Assembly (NCBI GenBank): GCA_030390025.1
Contig: CM059447.1
Location: 27,590,001 to 27,654,000 of the forward strand
Reading direction: 5' to 3'
From: Squalus acanthias
Taxonomy: Eukaryota
DNA: 64,000 bases
The notes beneath the pieces are model-generated. The model worked only from the letters and a program-made list of their open reading frames with translations, was not told where the DNA came from and searched no databases. Made by a program: the position numbers and the translations under genes. The number at the start of each line of letters is the position of its first letter. Position 1 is the first letter of the stretch. Below are positions 6,421 through 55,915 of the stretch, piece by piece.

Positions 6421-6990
6421 CTTTATAAATCTCTGGTTAGATCTCAACTAGAGTATTGTGTCTAATTCTGGGCACCACACTTTAGGAAGGATGTCAAGGC
6501 CTTGGAGAGGGTACAGAGGAGATTTACCAGAATGGTACCAGGGATGAGGGACTTTAGTTATATGGAGAGACCAGAGAAGCTGGGATTGTTCTCCTTAGAG
6601 CAGAGAAGGTTATGGGGAGATTTAATAGAAGTATTCAAAATTATGAGGGGTTTTGATAGAGTAGATAAGGAGAAACTGTTTCCACTGGCAGGAGGGTTGG
6701 TAACCAGAGGACACAGATTTAAGATAATTGGCAAAAAATCCAGTGGGTAATGGGGAGAGATATTTTTACACAACGAGTTGTTACAATCTGGAATGCTCTA
6801 CCTGAAAGGGTGGTGGAAGCAGATTCAGTAGTAACTTTCAAAAGGGAATTGGATAAATGCTTCAAAAGGAGAAAATTTTAGGGCTATGGGGAAAGAGCAG
6901 GGGAGTGGGACTAATTGGATAGTTCTTTCAAAGAGCCAGTATGGCATGTTGGGTCGAATGGCCTCCTTCTATGCTGTATGATACTATGAA
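6421..6990 (+). mobile_element. CR1 LINE 3' fragment (ORF2 C-terminus plus 3' UTR)
   Basis: Encodes ERVQRRFTRMVPGM...LGLFSLEQRRLWGDLIEVFKIMRGFDRVD...TRGH, matching the end of the CR1 ORF2 at 53950-54398. It ends in the typical gaatggcctccttctatgctgtatga tail. Confidence 0.92.
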
Positions 6991-25133: not shown

Positions 25134-25778
25134 TTAAAAGCACTACGTTAGTGCAAGTTGCTGTTGTTGTTCAGTCTACTTTCATAGGTGGGCCCTGGCT
25201 CCCTACATCCTCAGCAGTGCTTTTACTCGATGTGATATCTAGATAAATTGTATAGTAAGCCCGAATTGAATGACTTGGCTCTTCCCCTGTGATAAATCAA
25301 ACAATCATTACTACAATGCACCAAAATTAAACTGGAATGTGATTTCTGTGACTGAAGCCATTTTTAAAAATCTCGTTATGTATCATGACTGAAGTAAAGA
25401 AGCTGATACCAAGATAAATCTTAGACAAAAATTCTTCATTTAGCTCACACCCCACCAATGCCACTCTTCATCCGGTCACCAGGAGAACAGAGAACTAGAT
25501 GCATTTCCAGAGAAAGAAGGGATTCAGAGATATGGTGAGAAGAAAGACAGGTGGGGTTCATCTAAAAAAAACTCTTCCATTCTTATGGCCCAACATGTCT
25601 CTCTCAGATTGCCCCTTCCCTGTGGGCAGGCACTAAGCAGAGACCAGAAATGTGACCATGACTGGAAATTTAACAGGGGGCAAAGAAAACAGGTCTCTCC
25701 ACTCCATGGTGCCATTGCTGTCCCACTGCAGAACAAGCTAGAAATGCTTGGCAACAATGCCCTTTTAAAACATAAGGT

Positions 25779-26166
25779 GCAACAGAGGAGGCTGAGGGGA
25801 GACCTTATTGAGGTGTATAAAATTATGAGGGGCCTAGATAGAGTGGACAGAAAGGACCTATTTCCTTTAGCAGAGGGGTCAACAACCAGGGGGCATAGAT
25901 TTAAAGTAATTGGTAGGAGATTTAGAGGGGATTTGAGGGGAAATTTCTTCACCCAGAGGTGATTGGGGTCTGGAAATCACTGCCTGAAAGGGTGGTAGAG
26001 GCAGAAACCCTCACCACTTTTACAAAGTGCTTGGATGTGCACTTGAAGTGCCGTAACCTACAGGGCTACGGACCAAGAGCTGGAAAGTGGATAGCTCTTT
26101 GTCGGCCGGCGCGGACACGATGGGCCAAAATGGCCTCTTTCCGTGCTGTAAATTTCTATGATTCTA
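25779..26166 (+). mobile_element. CR1 LINE 3' fragment, close to the full-length copy
   Basis: QRRLRGDLIEVYKIMRGLDRVDRKDLFPLAEGSTTRGHRFKV is nearly identical to the ORF2 end at 54080-54398. The tail is gtgctgtaaatttctatgattcta. Confidence 0.93.
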
Positions 26167-34892: not shown

Positions 34893-35276
34893 GTGGTTGT
34901 GGGATTGGGATCACCTATAATGTCCCCCACAGTTCAAGAAACAGAATGAAGGTTGGGGGGGGGAGCGGATTTGGGGCTGGTGGTGGGCGGTAGGGTTAAT
35001 ACTTCAGGTGTGAACTTCATCAGGACACAGCTCTGCACCCGGAGTATTGGCCTGTTTTATCTCTTTTCAAGACTACTGGACATCACTGTGTGTTTCCAGA
35101 ATTTCCTGTTTTTGTTTAAAACCACACGCCTTTCACCACCTTAATTATTTTTATGTTATTTTATTCTTCTAATATCTTTTCATGGTTTGACTGAAATGAC
35201 CTTTTATGTCACTTAACAGGATCCAGCTTCCTTTCCACCCATACAAAGTGACTTGCTCACCTCTCCGTTGTGAAGA

Positions 35277-35555
35277 AAATTTAAGATAATTGGCAAAAAG
35301 AACCAAAGGGGACATGAGAAGAACTTTTTTACACAGCGAGTTATGATGATCTGGAATGCACTGTCTGAAAGGGTGGTGGAAGCAGATTCAATAGTAACTT
35401 TCAAAAGGGATAAATACTTGAAAAGGAAAATTTTGCAGGGCTATGGGGAAAGAGCAGGGATGTGGGATTAACTGGATAGCTCTTTCAAAGAGCCGGCACA
35501 GATACGATTGGCCAAATGGCTTCCTTCTGGGCTGTAAGATTGTATGATTCCATGA
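35277..35555 (+). mobile_element. CR1 LINE 3' terminal fragment
   Basis: Collinear with 6715-6990 (atttaagataattggcaaaa...ctgaaagggtggtggaagcagattca...gggctatggggaaagagcaggg). Confidence 0.9.
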
Positions 35556-43769: not shown

Positions 43770-44655
43770 TAAGGGATTAGGTTATGAAGAGAGTTTGGAG
43801 AAACTGGAGCTCTTTAGCCTTGCAAGGAGATGACGGAAAGGGAACTTTATAGAAATATATAAGATCTTAAATTGCATAGCTAGGGTTAATCTGGAGCACT
43901 ATTTCATGTAAGAGCAGGACATTAGAACAAAGAAGCATAGGCTAAAACTGGTGAAGTTTAGCTCATTCAAAACTCTAATGCCTGTATCCTATGCGGCACC
44001 AGCTTCCACTCATACATCAAACCTGTTCTTGCTGATCTTCATTGGCTCCCGGTCACCCAAGAACTCAAATTTAAAATTCTCATCTATGTGTTTAAATCCC
44101 TCCATGACCTTGACCCTCCCTCTCTCTGTAACCTTTTGCAGCGCTACAATACCCCCTGCCCCTGAACTCTGTGTTCCTCTGGCTTTGACCTCTTGTGCAA
44201 TGCACCTCCACCTCACTTCACCCCACCATTAGCAACTATGCCTTCAGCCACTTGGGTTCCATGGTCTGAAATTCACTACCAAAACCTCTCCACCTACCTC
44301 TCTTCCTCGGAGGAATTTTTAAGACCCTCCTTAAAATACAAGCTTGTGGTCACCCCTCCCAATATCTGCTTCTTTGGCTCAGCATCCATTTTTTGATCGT
44401 GCTTCCCTGAAGCACTTTGGTACGTTTCTCTATCTTAAAGGTGCTATATATAAATGCAAGCTGTTGCTGGAAAAATTGAGGACAGATGCCAGAAAGAACT
44501 TTTTTAGACAAAGAACGATCAATACTCGGGATGGTCTTCTGGGTAAAGGAGGCAAAAACAACAGACTCTTTCAAGAATCAGTTAGTTGGGGGATTCAAGG
44601 CTTTTGTCTGGATGTAGACCCGAATGGCCTCTCCTATCTGCATCTACCCTGTGAT
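43770..44655 (+). mobile_element. Old CR1 3' fragment split by an L2 insertion (CR1 parts about 43770-43952 and 44469-44655)
   Basis: The left part encodes YEESLEKLELFSL..R..GNFIEIYKIL. The right part resumes with KLRTDARKNFFRQRTINT and the gaatggcct tail. Confidence 0.7.
43953..44468 (+). mobile_element. L2 LINE 3' fragment
   Basis: Collinear with 17415-17946 (ttgctgatcttcattggctcccgg...ttaaaggtgctatatataaatgcaagctgttgctg). Confidence 0.85.
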
Positions 44656-50205: not shown

Positions 50206-50523
50206 CTGTCTCCTCACTTATTTAAATCTCAGCAGTATAAATAAGGGAGGCTAGAGTGCAGTTTGTCACGGAGTGCAGATCGGAACAGAGTGTTAAACTG
50301 CGAGTTTGGTGAGTGAGGGAGTGAGGGGAGGAGGTGTTCCTTTCTTTTTCCATCTTTGTCAGCTTCCAGGAGAGCAGGAGCTAAAAAGCTGCACAAGAGG
50401 GGACAGAGAACCAGCGGTGAGTATTTCTACAGTATTTCTACATTCCAGTCATTAAAGTAAAAAGTAAGGTCCCTAGTGTATTTAATATTCTTTAATTTAA
50501 AGGGAGTAAATTAAGGGTAGGAC

Positions 50524-51478
50524 ATGGCAGGGCAGCTCGGCAGCGTGGAGTGCTCCTCCTGTGCTATGTTGGAAGTCAGGGACACTTTAGGTGTCCAGGG
50601 CGAACACATGTGCAGGAAGTGTCTCCAGCTGCAGCTACTCGAAATCCACGTTTTGGAGCTGGAGCTGCGGCTGGAGTCACTGTGGAGCATCCGCGAAACT
50701 GAGATCTTCGTGGATAGCACGTTTAACAAGGTGGTCACACCACAGGTAAAGAGTGCACAGGCAGACAGGGAATGGGTGACCACCAGACAGAGTAAAAGAA
50801 CTAGGAAGGTAGTGCAGAAGTCCCCTGGGTCCATCTCCCTCTCCGACAGATTTTCCGTTTTGGATACTGATGGGGGAGATGGTTTCTCAGGGGAATGCAG
50901 CAAGAGCCAAGTCCGTGGCACTACGAGTGGCTCAGCTGCACAGGAGGGGAGGAAAAAGAGTGGGAGAGCAATAGTGATAGGGGATTCTATCGTAAGGGGA
51001 ACAGATAGACGTTTCTGTGGCAGCAGACGTGACTCCAGGATGGTATGTTGCCTCCCTGGTGCCAGGGTCAAGGATGTCACTGAACGGCTGTAGGGCATTC
51101 TGAAGGGGGAGGGCGAACAGTCAGAGGTCGTGGTTCACATTGGTACCAACGACATGGGTCGAAAGAGGGATGAGGTCCTGCAACAAGAATTTAGGGAGCT
51201 AGGTAGCAGATTAAAAAGCAGGACCTCAAAGGTTGTAATCTCTGGATTACTCCCGGTGCCACGTGCTAGTGAGTATAGGAATAGGAGGATAGAGCAAATG
51301 AATGCGTGGCTAAAGAGTTGGTGCAGGAGGGAGGGCTTTAGTTTCCTGGATCATTGGGTCTGCTTCTGGGGAAGGTGGGACCTGTACAAGTCGGACGGGT
51401 TGCACCTGAACCGGAACGGGACCAACATCCTTGCGGGGAGATTTGCTGGTACTGTTGCGGGGGGGGGGTTTAAACTAA
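50524..51478 (+). pseudogene. CR1 ORF1: Cys2-Cys2 zinc-finger-like motif, leucine-rich coiled coil and SGNH/GDSL esterase
   Basis: CSSC...CRKC; LQLQLLEIHVLELELRLESL; SGNH blocks VIGDSIVRG, HIGTND and DGLHLN. A premature TAG at 51091-51093 is followed by the same frame continuing. Confidence 0.92.
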
Positions 51479-54398
51479 CTTGGCAGGGGGATGGGATATG
51501 GAGTGGAGCTATAGTAGGGGGTGATGCACAGCCAACTATAGAGGAAAAAACAAGTCAGCCTGAAAGGCAGAGCAAATATGTAACGGCACAAGGGAGTATG
51601 GCAAGGCTGGATGGCATTTATTTTAATGCAAGGAGTCTTGCGAGTAAGGTAGATGATTTGAAGGTGTTGATGAACACATGGGAGTACGATATTGTTGCTA
51701 TCACAGAGACATGGTTGAGGGAGGGGCAGGACTGGCATATCAATATTCCGGGGTATAGAATCTTCAGGTGAGACAGAGGGGGGTGTAAAAGAGGAGGGGG
51801 TGTCGCAATATTAATCAAGGAGTCAATTAATGCTGTAAGGAGGGATGATATCTTAGCAGGTTCCTCTAATGAGGCCATATGGGTAGAACTTAAAAACAAA
51901 AAGGGGGCAAGCGCTTTGCTGGGAGTGTACTATAGGCCCCCAAACAGTCAGGGGGAGATAGAGGAACAGATATTTAGGCAAATCTCAGAGAAGTGTAGAA
52001 ATAATAGGGTAATAATAGTAGGGGATTTCAACTTCCCCAATATTAACTGGGATAGTCAGAGTGTGAAAGGCTTAGAGGGTGCAAAATTCTTAAAGTGCAT
52101 CCAGGAGAGCTTTTTGTGTCAGCATGTAGAAAGTCCTACAAGAGAGGGGGCGGTACTGGATCTAATTCTAGGGAATGTAGCTGGGCAAGTGGTAGAAGTG
52201 TTAGTAGGAGAGCATTTTGGTGACAGTGACCATAATTCAGTGAGATTTAAGGTAGTCATGGAAAAGGACAAAGATGGACCGGAAATAAAGGTTCTAAATT
52301 GGGGGAAGGCCGATTTTAATATAATAAGGCAGGATCTGGCCAAAGTGGACTGGGATCAGCTACTTGTAGGAAAATCCACATCAGAGTAGTGGGGGTCTTT
52401 CAGAAAGGAAATAGAGAGAGTACAATGCCAACATGTTCCCGTAAAGGTCAAGGGTGGGACCAACAAGCCCAGGGAACCCTGGATGTCAAGGGATATACGA
52501 GAATGGAGTAGGAAGAAAAGGGAGGCTTTTGGCAGATACAAAGGACTAAAAACAGTGGAAGCCCTAGAGGAGTATAGAAAGTGCAGGGGGGTACTTAAAA
52601 AAGAAATTAGGAGAGCGAAGAGGGGGCATGAAATAACACTGGCGGGCAAAATAAAGAAAAATCCCAATGTGTTTTATAAGTATATTAAGGGCAAGAGGAT
52701 AACCAGGGAAAGAGTAGGGCCCATTAGGGACCAAAGTGGCAATCTGTGTGTAGAGCCAGAAGATGTAGGTGAGGTTTTAAATGAATATTTTGCATCTGTG
52801 TTCACTATGGAGAAGGACGATGTAGGCATAGAAATCAGACAGGGGGATTGTGATATACTTGAACAAATTAGTATTGAGAGGGAGGAGGTACTAGCGGTTT
52901 TAGCGGGCTTAAAAGTGGATAAATCCCCAGGCCCAGACGAGATGTATCCCAGGCTGCTGTGTGAGGCAAGGGAGGAGATTGCAGGGGCTCTGACACAAAT
53001 TTTCAGAACCTCTCTGGCCACAGGGGAGGTGCCAGAGGGCTGGAGAACAGCTAACGTAGTACCATTATTCAAGAAGGGTAGTAGGGATAAACCAGGGAAT
53101 TATAGGCCAGTGAGCCTAACATCAGTGGTAGGGAAATTATTGGAAAAAAATCTGAGGGACAGAATTAGTCTCCACTTGGAGAGGCAAGGATCAACCAAGG
53201 ATAGTCAGCATGGTTTTGTCAGGGGGAGATCATGTCTGACCAATTTGATTGAATTTTTCGAGTGGGTGAGGGTAGTGCAGTTGATGTGGTCTACATGGAC
53301 TTCAGTAAGGCTTTTGACAAAGTCCCGCATGGGAGACTGGTCAAGAAGGTAAGAGCCCATGGGATCCAGGGCAACTTGGCACATTGGATCCAAAATTGGC
53401 TTAGTGGCAGGAGGCAGAGGGTGATGGTCGAAGGTAGTTTTTGTGACTGGAAGCCTGTGTCCAGTGGTGTACCGCAGGGATCGGTGCTGGGTCCTTTGCT
53501 GTTTGTAGTGTACATTAATGATTTAGATATGAATGTAGGAGGTATGATCTGTAAGTTTGCAGATGACACGAAAATTGGTGGGGTGGTGAATAGCGAGGAG
53601 GGAAGCCTCAGGCTACTGGACGATATAGACGGGTTGGTCAGATGGGCAGAACAGTGGCAAATGGAATTTAACCCTGAAAAGTGTGAGGTGATGCATTTTG
53701 GGAGGACGAACAAGGCAAGGGAATACACAATGAATGGTAGGACCCTAGGAAGGACAGAGGATCAGAGGGACCTTGGTGTGCATGTACATAGATCCCTGAA
53801 GGCAGCAGGACAGGTAGATAAGGTGGTTAAGAAGGCATATGGGATACTTGCCTTCATTAGCCGAGGCATAGAATATAAGAGCAGGGAGGTTATGATGGAG
53901 CTGTACAAAATGCTAGTTAGGGTACAGCTGGAATACTGTGTGCAGTTCTGGTCGCCACACTATAGGAAGGATGTGATAGCATTGGAGAGGGTGCAGAGGA
54001 GATTCATCAGGATGTTACCTGAGTTGCAGCGCTTCAGCTATGAAGAGAGCCTGGACAGGCTGGGGTTGTTTTCCTTAGAGCAGAGAAGGCTGAGGGGGGA
54101 CCTGATTGAGGTGTACAAAATTATGAGGGGCATAGATAGGGTAGATAGAAAGGAACTTTTCCCCTTAGTAGAGGGGTCAACAACCAGGGGGCATAGTTTC
54201 AAGGTAAGGGGCAGGAGGTTTAGAGGGGATTTGAGGAAAAAAAATTTCACCCAGAGGGTGGTTGGAATCTGGAACTCACTGCCTGAAAGGGTGGTAGAGG
54301 CAGGAACCCTCACAACATTCAAGAAGCATTTAGATGAGCACTTGAAACACCATACTAGCATACAAGGCTACGGACCAAGTGCTGGAAAATGGGATTAG
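51469..54398 (+). pseudogene. CR1 ORF2: APE-type endonuclease plus reverse transcriptase
   Basis: EN motifs FNARS, ITETWL, YRPP, GDFN, LDLIL and SDH. RT motifs NYRPVSLTS, QHGF, DFSKAFDKV, GVPQGSVLGPLLF and KFADDTK. In-frame stops at 51769-51771 and 52387-52389, and a frameshifting deletion near 53262. The first in-frame ATG is at 51598. Confidence 0.95.
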
Positions 54399-54470
54399 AA
54401 TAGACAGGGCTTGATAGCCGGCACGGACACGACGGGTTGAAGGGCCTCTTTCTGTGCTGAACTCTATGAG

Positions 54471-55050
54471 ACCTTTCAAGGCTGAAAAAATTAAGTTTTT
54501 CTATTCTTTCCTCAGATCTCTTTTGAGCTACCTCCTGATGTCTTGGTGACCTGTACTGGACGCAGTGTCCAAGGTGTGGTCTGACCAGAGCACTGTATAG
54601 CTTGGACATGACTTGTACCACACTGTTCTGGCTATATAGTTCAGTATTCTATTGGCTTTGTTGATTGCTGCTCTGCTGTGGTTAGAGATGATGAGAATTT
54701 CAACTTCACCTTCTGCTTTTACAAAATGGAGTATGTGTCACCTTTTTTTCCCCTATGTGCAGTACTTTAGGCTTGTCCATGTTAAATTTCATCTGCCATT
54801 GCTCTGCCCGCTTACATATTTTGTCCAATTAATTTTGTATTTCTCGAGCTGCCTCCTCAGAATAAAATGTCCCTCTTAGTTTGGTATCATTTGCATATTA
54901 ATCAATTTGTATTGAGTTTCTGAATTCAAGTCATTGATGTAAATTAGAAACGGCAATATTTATAATACTGGTCCCTGGGGCACAGCACTCAGAACACTCC
55001 CCCCACCAATATTATTCCTCTATCTCTTTTCTACCCTTCAATCAATTTTG
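54471..55050 (-). mobile_element. Old CR1 LINE RT/C-terminal remnant, antisense (host of the full-length CR1)
   Basis: The minus strand gives KLYSALVRPHLGHCVQYRSPRHQE..YEE-like..EKLNFFSLER. ttggtatcatttgcata near 54880 reads YANDTK, a decayed FADDTK. Confidence 0.8.
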
Positions 55051-55227: not shown

Positions 55228-55915
55228 GGGGTGGATATTCACCTTGGGCAGTAGTGCAAAATGGCCGGTAGCGCAAATGGGCGATAGCGCAAAATGGGCG
55301 ATGTGCAAATGGGTGATAGTGCAAATGGGCGATGTGCAAATGGGCGATAGTGCAAAATGGGCGATGTGCAAATGGGCGATGTGCAAATGGGCGATAGTGC
55401 AAAATGGGCGATGTGCAAATGGGCGATGTGCAAATGGGCGAGAGTGCAAAATGGGCAATGTGCAAATGGGCGATGTGCAAATGGGCGATAGTGCAAATGG
55501 GTGGTAGTGCAAATGGACGATGTGCAAATGGGCGGTAGTGCAAATGAGCGATGTGCAAATGGACGATGTGCAAATGGGCGGTAGTGCAAATGGGCGATGC
55601 GCAAATGGGCGATGCGCAAATGGGCGGTAGTGCAAATGGGCGGTAGTGCAAATGGGTGATGTGCAAATGGGCGATAGTGCAAATGGGCGATGTGCAAATG
55701 GGTGATAGTGCAAATGGGTGATAGTGCAAATGGGCGGTAGTGCAAATGGGCAATGTGCAAATGGGCAATAGTGCAAAATGGGCGATAGCCCATCAGCGAT
55801 CCGTTTTACACTCCGCCTGATTTTCTTCTCCATTGCAAATTGGGTGGAGTGTAAAATGGGCTGCTGACTCACTATTGCTAGTTTTGCACTATTGCCTAAG
55901 ACATATTTCAACCCC
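55228..55915. mobile_element. Palindromic MITE whose left arm is expanded by a minisatellite
   Basis: Left end ggggtggatattcaccttgggcagtagtgcaaaa versus right end ttttgcactattgcctaagacatatttcaacccc. Inner arms ccgttttacactccgcctgattt / aaattgggtggagtgtaaaatgg. Confidence 0.8.
55246..55790 (+). repeat. Minisatellite, about 34 units of 15-17 bp, consensus GGGCGAT(A)GTGCAAA(A)T
   Basis: Units counted directly. It explains the repetitive PICT/IAHLH/RPFAH ORFs in the track. Confidence 0.95.

Follow-up and report, generated by a model that had tools for sequence, protein, structure and literature searches.

A conserved slippery heptamer at the ORF1/ORF2 junction suggests programmed −1 ribosomal frameshifting in CR1 LINEs

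We analyzed a stretch of 64,000 nucleotides of the Squalus acanthias genome (assembly GCA_030390025.1, contig CM059447.1, positions 27,590,001 to 27,654,000 of the forward strand; referred to below as the window), which contains a near full-length, dead copy of a CR1-type long interspersed nuclear element (LINE). Comparison of the junction between the two open reading frames (ORFs) of this element with those of its relatives suggests that the endonuclease and reverse transcriptase (RT) of CR1 LINEs are probably made fused to ORF1, through programmed −1 ribosomal frameshifting at the slippery heptamer U_UUA_AAC (TTTAAAC; 51469-51475, + strand, the predicted shift site). A first-pass annotation of the window had proposed this mode of expression for the family, and the proposal is supported, at the level of sequence, by the heptamer, its phase and the open −1 frame that follows it.

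Results

Codon-level conservation of the heptamer

The junction was compared in 21 representatives, one per family or locus: nine from S. acanthias, eight of amniote type, and four annelid-type or related. Their pairwise amino-acid identity is 16-87% (median 30%), and they form 14 nucleotide clusters at 80% identity and 8 at 70%. The further S. acanthias CR1 families were obtained by five protein searches of the same genome. A metagenome scan yielded 52 loci (22 reach the end of ORF1, several being cut off there), which comprise amniote-type elements, so labelled from their similarity to turtle homologs and from what is known of bird CR1, and a distant annelid-type clade, whose named relatives (72-76% identity) are from Ridgeia piscesae. 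Excluded from the codon set were an L2-like locus (L069), a locus with a broken frame (L057), and L042, L052, L058, L065 and L068, which belong to clades already represented.

In the zero frame of ORF1 all representatives carry an X_XXY_YYZ pattern, which reads U_UUA_AAC in 20 of the 21 and G_UUA_AAC in one. The terminal Leu codon is TTA (background 14% of Leu) and the terminal Asn codon is AAC (background 39% of Asn) in every representative, and the T preceding TTA is kept in 20/21, under seven different residues (G, S, A, T, C, H and Y); the single exception is the one that yields G_UUA_AAC. The stop codon directly 3′ of the heptamer is TAA, TAG or TGA. Modal-codon shares in 16 other conserved columns, which served as a control, are 0.35-0.76. 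The representatives are related, so their counts are not independent trials, and the control columns share the same relatedness. Free synonymous variation in the heptamer, which the first-pass annotation had named as evidence against its own proposal, was looked for in these 21 sequences and none was found. A change to AAT would leave the residues of both frames unaltered, yet this codon does not occur among the representatives, which points to a constraint on the nucleotides themselves; dual amino-acid coding does not explain it.

Synonymous conservation peaks at the junction in both ORFs, reaching 0.99 in ORF1 (mean 0.53, standard deviation 0.12; 249 alignment windows, 14 sequences) and 0.98 in ORF2 (mean 0.44, standard deviation 0.12; 316 alignment windows over the first 430 codons, 13 sequences), i.e. 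approx. 4 standard deviations above the mean in each. The heptamer is thus conserved at its synonymous positions beyond what the protein needs. The heptamer 10-mer alone is not rare in the window (two matches versus 0.54 expected; 9 of 100 shuffles reach two), and what exceeds chance is its position, its phase and its conservation across lineages, not its bare occurrence.

Reading frames downstream of the heptamer

Of 22 representatives tested for frame, 19 have the endonuclease N-A-R-S motif in the −1 frame, two run off their contigs and one has an indel. Between the heptamer and the endonuclease the −1 frame contains no stop in 16 of these 19 (1.0 expected from shuffles), and the linker leading to the endonuclease Asn measures 39-95 codons. 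The +1 frame is interrupted by 3-12 stops in each of the 19, and on the 5′ side of the heptamer a stop ends the −1 frame within 5 codons in 13. In seven of the 19 lineages there is no Met ahead of the endonuclease Asn; the expectation that the −1 frame would stay open to the endonuclease even where the ATG of the window copy is missing has thus been borne out, and a sister family of the window family does lack this ATG. Five intact copies from two families have an open −1 ORF of 968-999 codons.

In a survey of 20 longer stretches, three copies of one young family were found to be wholly intact, with 12-19 nt differences over 3830 nt. Their −1 frame comprises 968 codons and its first Met is at codon 167, past the Asn at 48 and the E-T-W at 75, which we take to be catalytic residues of the APE endonuclease. 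At least 1149 copies of this family have the junction in split phase, and 99 of the first 100 copies listed read T-TTA-AAC-TAA; the minor forms are 21 copies with one G fewer and one copy with a fusing deletion. The ratio of at least 1149 split-phase copies to one fused copy speaks against a natively single ORF, another outcome that had been put forward as fatal to the proposal.

The fusing deletion (L168; G000:C14:54877000-54883500) is short and creates one intact ORF1-ORF2 frame of 1270 codons. An amplified hard-wired fusion was considered and rejected, the deletion being single-copy. The 3′ flank of L168 looks like a nested insertion, resembling the endonuclease part of a different CR1 family, and other single frames of 1192-1280 codons are present. 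The genome harbours at least two very young CR1 families that include fully intact copies and whose ORF1s are only approx. 41-56% identical to that of the window family. Recombinant-looking junctions between CR1 families were seen at L196 and L200.

The frames also bear on two other explanations of the junction. The first, which we regard as unlikely, is termination-reinitiation as in L1 and SART1, with a restart at a nearby AUG or non-AUG codon and with the heptamer and the G-run as cis-elements of the restart. Reinitiation is the accepted model for bicistronic LINEs in the accessible text of PMC2881922 and PMC3708506, and L1, according to part of PMC13705589, tolerates loss of its ORF2 AUG, so the lack of an AUG alone is no proof of frameshifting. 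An in-frame ATG is located somewhere in the linker in 12 of the 19 lineages, in three of them at codon 5 (at a distance of 5 nt from where the ORF1 stop begins), and that of the window family (51598) stands in a strong context. However, reinitiation gives no reason for an X_XXY_YYZ pattern to end precisely at the stop, codon 5 varies freely, no AUG, CUG, GUG, UUG or ACG is common in position among the 8 lineages compared, and the seven lineages mentioned above have no Met before the endonuclease Asn. In lineages with an AUG, reinitiation may act as a second route.

The second explanation is that the motif is kept for some other reason (the C-terminal L-N of the esterase, a termination context, or an RNA/DNA packaging or transcription signal), with ORF2 being made otherwise, and this we consider quite improbable. 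L315 and N316 are invariant in alignment A1, and TTTAAA with a G-box resembles promoter elements. Against this, the codons are fixed, not the residues alone, and there are related esterases without the L-N end. Translation of a transcript with ORF2 alone would again require an AUG, which the same seven lineages lack, and the open −1 frame reaches as far as the heptamer although the linker varies in length.

A G-run at fixed distance from the heptamer

For the analysis of the downstream region the 21 representatives of the codon test were used, with L084 replacing L040, and were compared without gaps. G occupies positions +11 and +12 past the heptamer in 21/21 and positions +13 to +15 in 20/21 (51486-51490, + strand, in the window copy), and GGGGG is found at exactly +11 to +15 in 131 of 147 copies; L032 and L059 deviate at the run. 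The G at +11, a third codon position in the −1 frame, is kept in 20/20 under five codons, GGG is the −1 codon that comes next in 18/20 (against 28% of Gly codons in the background), and the run forms the second-highest alignment window of ORF2 synonymous conservation (0.88). What had been described simply as G-rich downstream sequence proves to be a conserved motif at a fixed distance.

This G5 run is an unstructured motif approx. [quoted passage not shown] Provided that frameshifting occurs, there is about an even chance that a protein-bound G-tract is the stimulator; this best guess is made by analogy only, from the lack of a conserved structure and the register shared with the PRRSV motif.

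UGGGA-like letters, reminiscent of the calicivirus-type termination upstream ribosome-binding site, are present 3′ of the stop in some lineages only, and this candidate was rejected on geometry.

Distribution of the L-N ending

The 120 ORF1 homologs listed for the window ORF1 originate, by name, from sharks, rays, chimaera, teleost, coelacanth, frogs, turtles and squamates, the closest named ones being from sharks and rays. Among them, 84 have a short tail after a D-G-x-H motif and 79 of these 84 have an L-N C-terminus, the ending that the first-pass annotation had described as common in vertebrate CR1 ORF1s; the rest either lack the D-G-x-H motif (33) or have long tails (3), two of which read F-K-L, i.e. 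the −1 translation. In the annelid-type clade 79 of 89 short-tailed homologs end in L-N (120 examined). Viral and prokaryote contigs scanned with ORF1 gave no matches. A shark-type CR1 ORF1 (P0007, 61% identity) is filed under the name of Pseudomonas aeruginosa, which likely reflects contamination of that assembly.

Other endings were observed at greater distance. Some distant esterase ORF1s end in Q-G-N or S-K-N, and others in F-F-R or F-F-H (P0120, P0285, P0296, P0301, P0306, P0310, P0319, P0353, P0361, P0304 and P0368); judging from these protein ends, Q-G-N and S-K-N would fit G_GGA_AAC and A_AAA_AAC heptamers. The esterase ORF1 of zebrafish ZfL2-1 (PDB 4C1B), a member of the L2 clade, is homologous to CR1 ORF1 (E 6e-28). 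The sole L2-like locus found, L069, has no heptamer: its esterase ORF1 ends P-H-D-TGA-CTG (L069:3109-3300, + strand), and beyond the UGA the endonuclease follows without a change of frame. UGA-C is a readthrough-type context. On the evidence of this one locus, the L2-like sister clade may use another recoding route.

Observations against frameshifting

Besides the linker methionines and the AUG-independence of L1 discussed above, several observations weigh against the frameshift model. The representatives are related (the eight clusters at 70% nucleotide identity), and the profile used to find them was built on proteins that end in LN, a source of bias for the amino acids but not for the codons. 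The heptamer or stop is altered in L042, L058 and L065, all of which lie outside the codon set, and single-copy deviations of these kinds are also found in L007, L014 and L139. Stops interrupt the linker in 3 of the 19 representatives and an indel was found in one more, all of these being single decayed copies.

The search for a stimulatory structure was negative. As the first-pass annotation had judged by eye, no pseudoknot is evident: neither a conserved pseudoknot nor a stem-loop was detected 5-9 nt 3′ of the heptamer by minimum free energy folds and a duplex scan, which did not include a dedicated pseudoknot predictor. Folds of 90 nt from 21 representatives have z-scores of −2.0 to +1.3 and share no common fold, and a partner of the G-run within 200 nt beats shuffles in only 1/20. 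A G-quadruplex is predicted in 7/21 and is absent in annelid-type lineages, and therefore it was rejected as a general stimulator. A C-rich stretch approx. 650 nt upstream, which recurs in several vertebrate lineages, was considered as a long-range partner and left unsupported; it does not lie in synonymously conserved alignment windows and is missing from annelid-type lineages.

Finally, the feature is clade-limited, as judged from protein ends and junction sequences, because only 45 of 92 short-tailed distant relatives (from a 50%-cluster library) end in L-N, with nine ending in G-N (eight of them Q-G-N) and two in K-N, and because L069 uses another junction.

The window copy and its family

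The CR1 copy of the window extends approximately from 50213 to 54460 (+ strand), as delimited by blastn against sister copies (approx. 95% identity over 4.2-4.3 kb) and by its domains. ORF1 (50524-51478, + strand) encodes an N-terminal Cys motif and an SGNH/GDSL esterase (PF13472, E 2e-16 on sister copy L025, and the PDB 4C1B match given above). It is interrupted by a premature TAG (51091-51093), and the family stop, TAA at 51476-51478 directly 3′ of the heptamer, is out of phase in this copy. The variable linker in the −1 frame (51479-51624, + strand; 52 codons from the heptamer to the endonuclease Asn) is followed by the endonuclease and RT of ORF2 (51625-54398, + strand), which contains a TGA at 51769, a TAG at 52387 and a frameshifting deletion near 53260.

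The element has the esterase ORF1 and the APE endonuclease and RT in ORF2 that are expected of CR1; an esterase ORF1 is typical of vertebrate CR1 in the available part of PMC13343379. The 3′ end consists of short tandem units with no poly(A), with TTCTATG-type units in four young-family copies and one decayed unit in the window copy. The CR1 label is based on domains, 3′ tandem units and named homologs.

The order described in the first-pass annotation, a G10 run in the assembled sequence (51459-51468, + strand) followed by TTTAAAC and TAA, was read at the positions given here. As it had also noted, the esterase frame enters the endonuclease frame without a stop (the stop-free frame is 51094-51771) and remains open for approx. 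43 codons before the first ATG, which is located at 51598, codon 44 from the heptamer. Fusion of the frames by this unstable G10 run, which is 4 nt above the family mode, is a feature of the window copy only. In the 30 nearest copies, which represent the window family (40 scored of 1450 candidates), TTTAAAC is kept in 28, the modal G-run length (4 nt below that of the window copy) is found in 10, and a whole 316-aa ORF1 ending in L-N-stop is present in three; 15 copies are in the ORF1-stop phase, seven are fused (the window copy included) and eight are in the third phase. Since both the length of the G-run and the phase vary among these copies, the fused frame reflects a slip of the unstable run in the individual copy, whereas the state of the family is that of two ORFs, the second of them in the −1 frame. 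The window run is indeed longer than that of the family, as had been stated, by 4 nt rather than the single G assumed. The further remark that the extra G hard-wires the fusion is without consequence, because the copy is dead, with its TAG in ORF1 and its three lesions in ORF2. The window copy is a pseudogene of a putatively frameshifting CR1 family, unable to make the fusion itself.

The G-run 5′ of the heptamer is also relevant to a further explanation, which we regard as very improbable, namely that splicing, or transcriptional slippage at this run, gives access to ORF2. The window family does have CTAAC and, after it, TTGGCAG, which resemble a branch point and an acceptor, together with an unstable G8 run; however, the upstream G-run and the AG are missing in other lineages, and the distance from branch point to acceptor is too short. 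Four contig sets guessed to be RNA span the junction without joints, which is too weak to use.

Elsewhere in the window, a tandem array (55245-55788; 15-16-nt unit, approx. 34 copies, 87% matches) lies shortly 3′ of the CR1 copy, and there are five further truncated RT fragments of CR1/L2 type, at 6421-6857, 25555-26048, 35232-35423 and 43774-43950 (all + strand) and at 54472-54995 (− strand). The junction is absent from all five.

Discussion

In the frameshift model proposed here, most ribosomes would terminate at the ORF1 stop and release ORF1p, while a minority would slip in tandem, from UUA-AAC to UUU-AAA, just ahead of the stop and cross the flexible linker into the endonuclease, thus producing an esterase-linker-endonuclease-RT fusion. 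The ORF1p:ORF2p ratio would be set by the slip rate, as is that of gag:pol. Slow termination at the adjacent stop may aid the slipping. In the most speculative step, a protein, either ORF1p or a G-tract binder of the host, would land on the G-run where the mRNA enters its channel.

The site resembles known viral ones. According to the available part of the review by Atkins et al. 2016 (PMC5009743), U_UUA_AAC is among the most shift-prone heptamers and G_UUA is used in equine arteritis virus; the coronavirus/arterivirus ORF1a/1b and retroviral gag-pol sites share with CR1 the heptamer class (U_UUA_AAC, G_UUA_AAC), the phase, and the arrangement of a structural protein upstream and a polymerase downstream in the −1 frame. 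In contrast to these sites, no conserved pseudoknot or stem-loop was found in CR1, and CR1, a non-LTR retrotransposon, has no protease of its own; the fusion would therefore either remain intact or be cleaved by the host. The nsp2 frameshift of PRRSV, with nsp1beta and poly(C)-binding protein acting on CCCANCUCC, likewise relies on a short unstructured motif from 11 nt 3′ (PMC5009743, same part), whereas the CR1 motif is G-rich instead of C-rich, the CR1 heptamer is U_UUA_AAC and the partner protein is only postulated. Natural quadruplex stimulators of frameshifting were not known according to the part of Atkins et al. 2016 (PMC5009743) available.

Among LINEs, the Dictyostelium elements TRE5-A and TRE3-A, which are of APE type, are said in a review legend to need a −1 frameshift for ORF2 (PMC5911963, in part); they are amoebal and belong to another clade, and the likeness to CR1 is drawn from this statement, to which PMC5006619, in part, adds nothing. 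Mammalian L1 and silkworm SART1 share with CR1 a bicistronic RNA and an ORF2 that depends on ORF1 translation. These two elements use termination-reinitiation and make separate proteins (PMC2881922 and PMC3708506, in the text available), whereas ORF2 of CR1 overlaps the stop and often lacks an AUG.

While −1 frameshifting is already known as a mechanism, we found no report of its use by CR1 in the literature covered, whose scope did not extend to the 1997 and 2001 CR1 papers, Alisch 2006, the 1994 Dictyostelium paper and supplements. CR1 frameshifting is not mentioned in the accessible parts of PMC13343379 (a 2026 survey), PMC2734521, PMC11835228 and PMC4176376; the word "frameshift" does not occur in the available text of PMC13343379, nor "CR1" in the first 300,000 characters of PMC5009743.

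A broader reading may also be considered, although we regard it as somewhat less likely than not when all its parts are taken together. It would have one 25-nt cassette (U_UUA_AAC with the stop directly behind it, then a spacer of 10 nt and a protein-bound G5) in use across the CR1 clade since before the protostome-deuterostome split, or spread by transfer. The G-tract would then be the first stimulator of its kind to be free of structure, and the Q-G-N and S-K-N sister clades would perhaps use G_GGA_AAC and A_AAA_AAC. If true, this reading would mean that a LINE follows the strategy of gag-pol.

The way in which ORF2 of LINEs is translated has long been in question, and an answer, reinitiation, exists only for L1 and SART1. 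Among the LINEs of birds, reptiles and cartilaginous fishes CR1 is the main one, yet the reviews, in the parts available, give no mechanism for it; it is the dominant LINE of most non-mammalian vertebrates and is also present in annelids. If CR1 elements do frameshift, their working enzyme would be a fusion of esterase, endonuclease and RT whose amount stands in a fixed ratio to that of ORF1p, CR1 ORF2 annotations that begin at an internal Met would be truncated, and engineered CR1 assays would require the native junction. Control of CR1 elements by host factors that act on frameshifting in viruses would then be conceivable as well, and the way in which these very common elements produce their copying enzyme would be explained.

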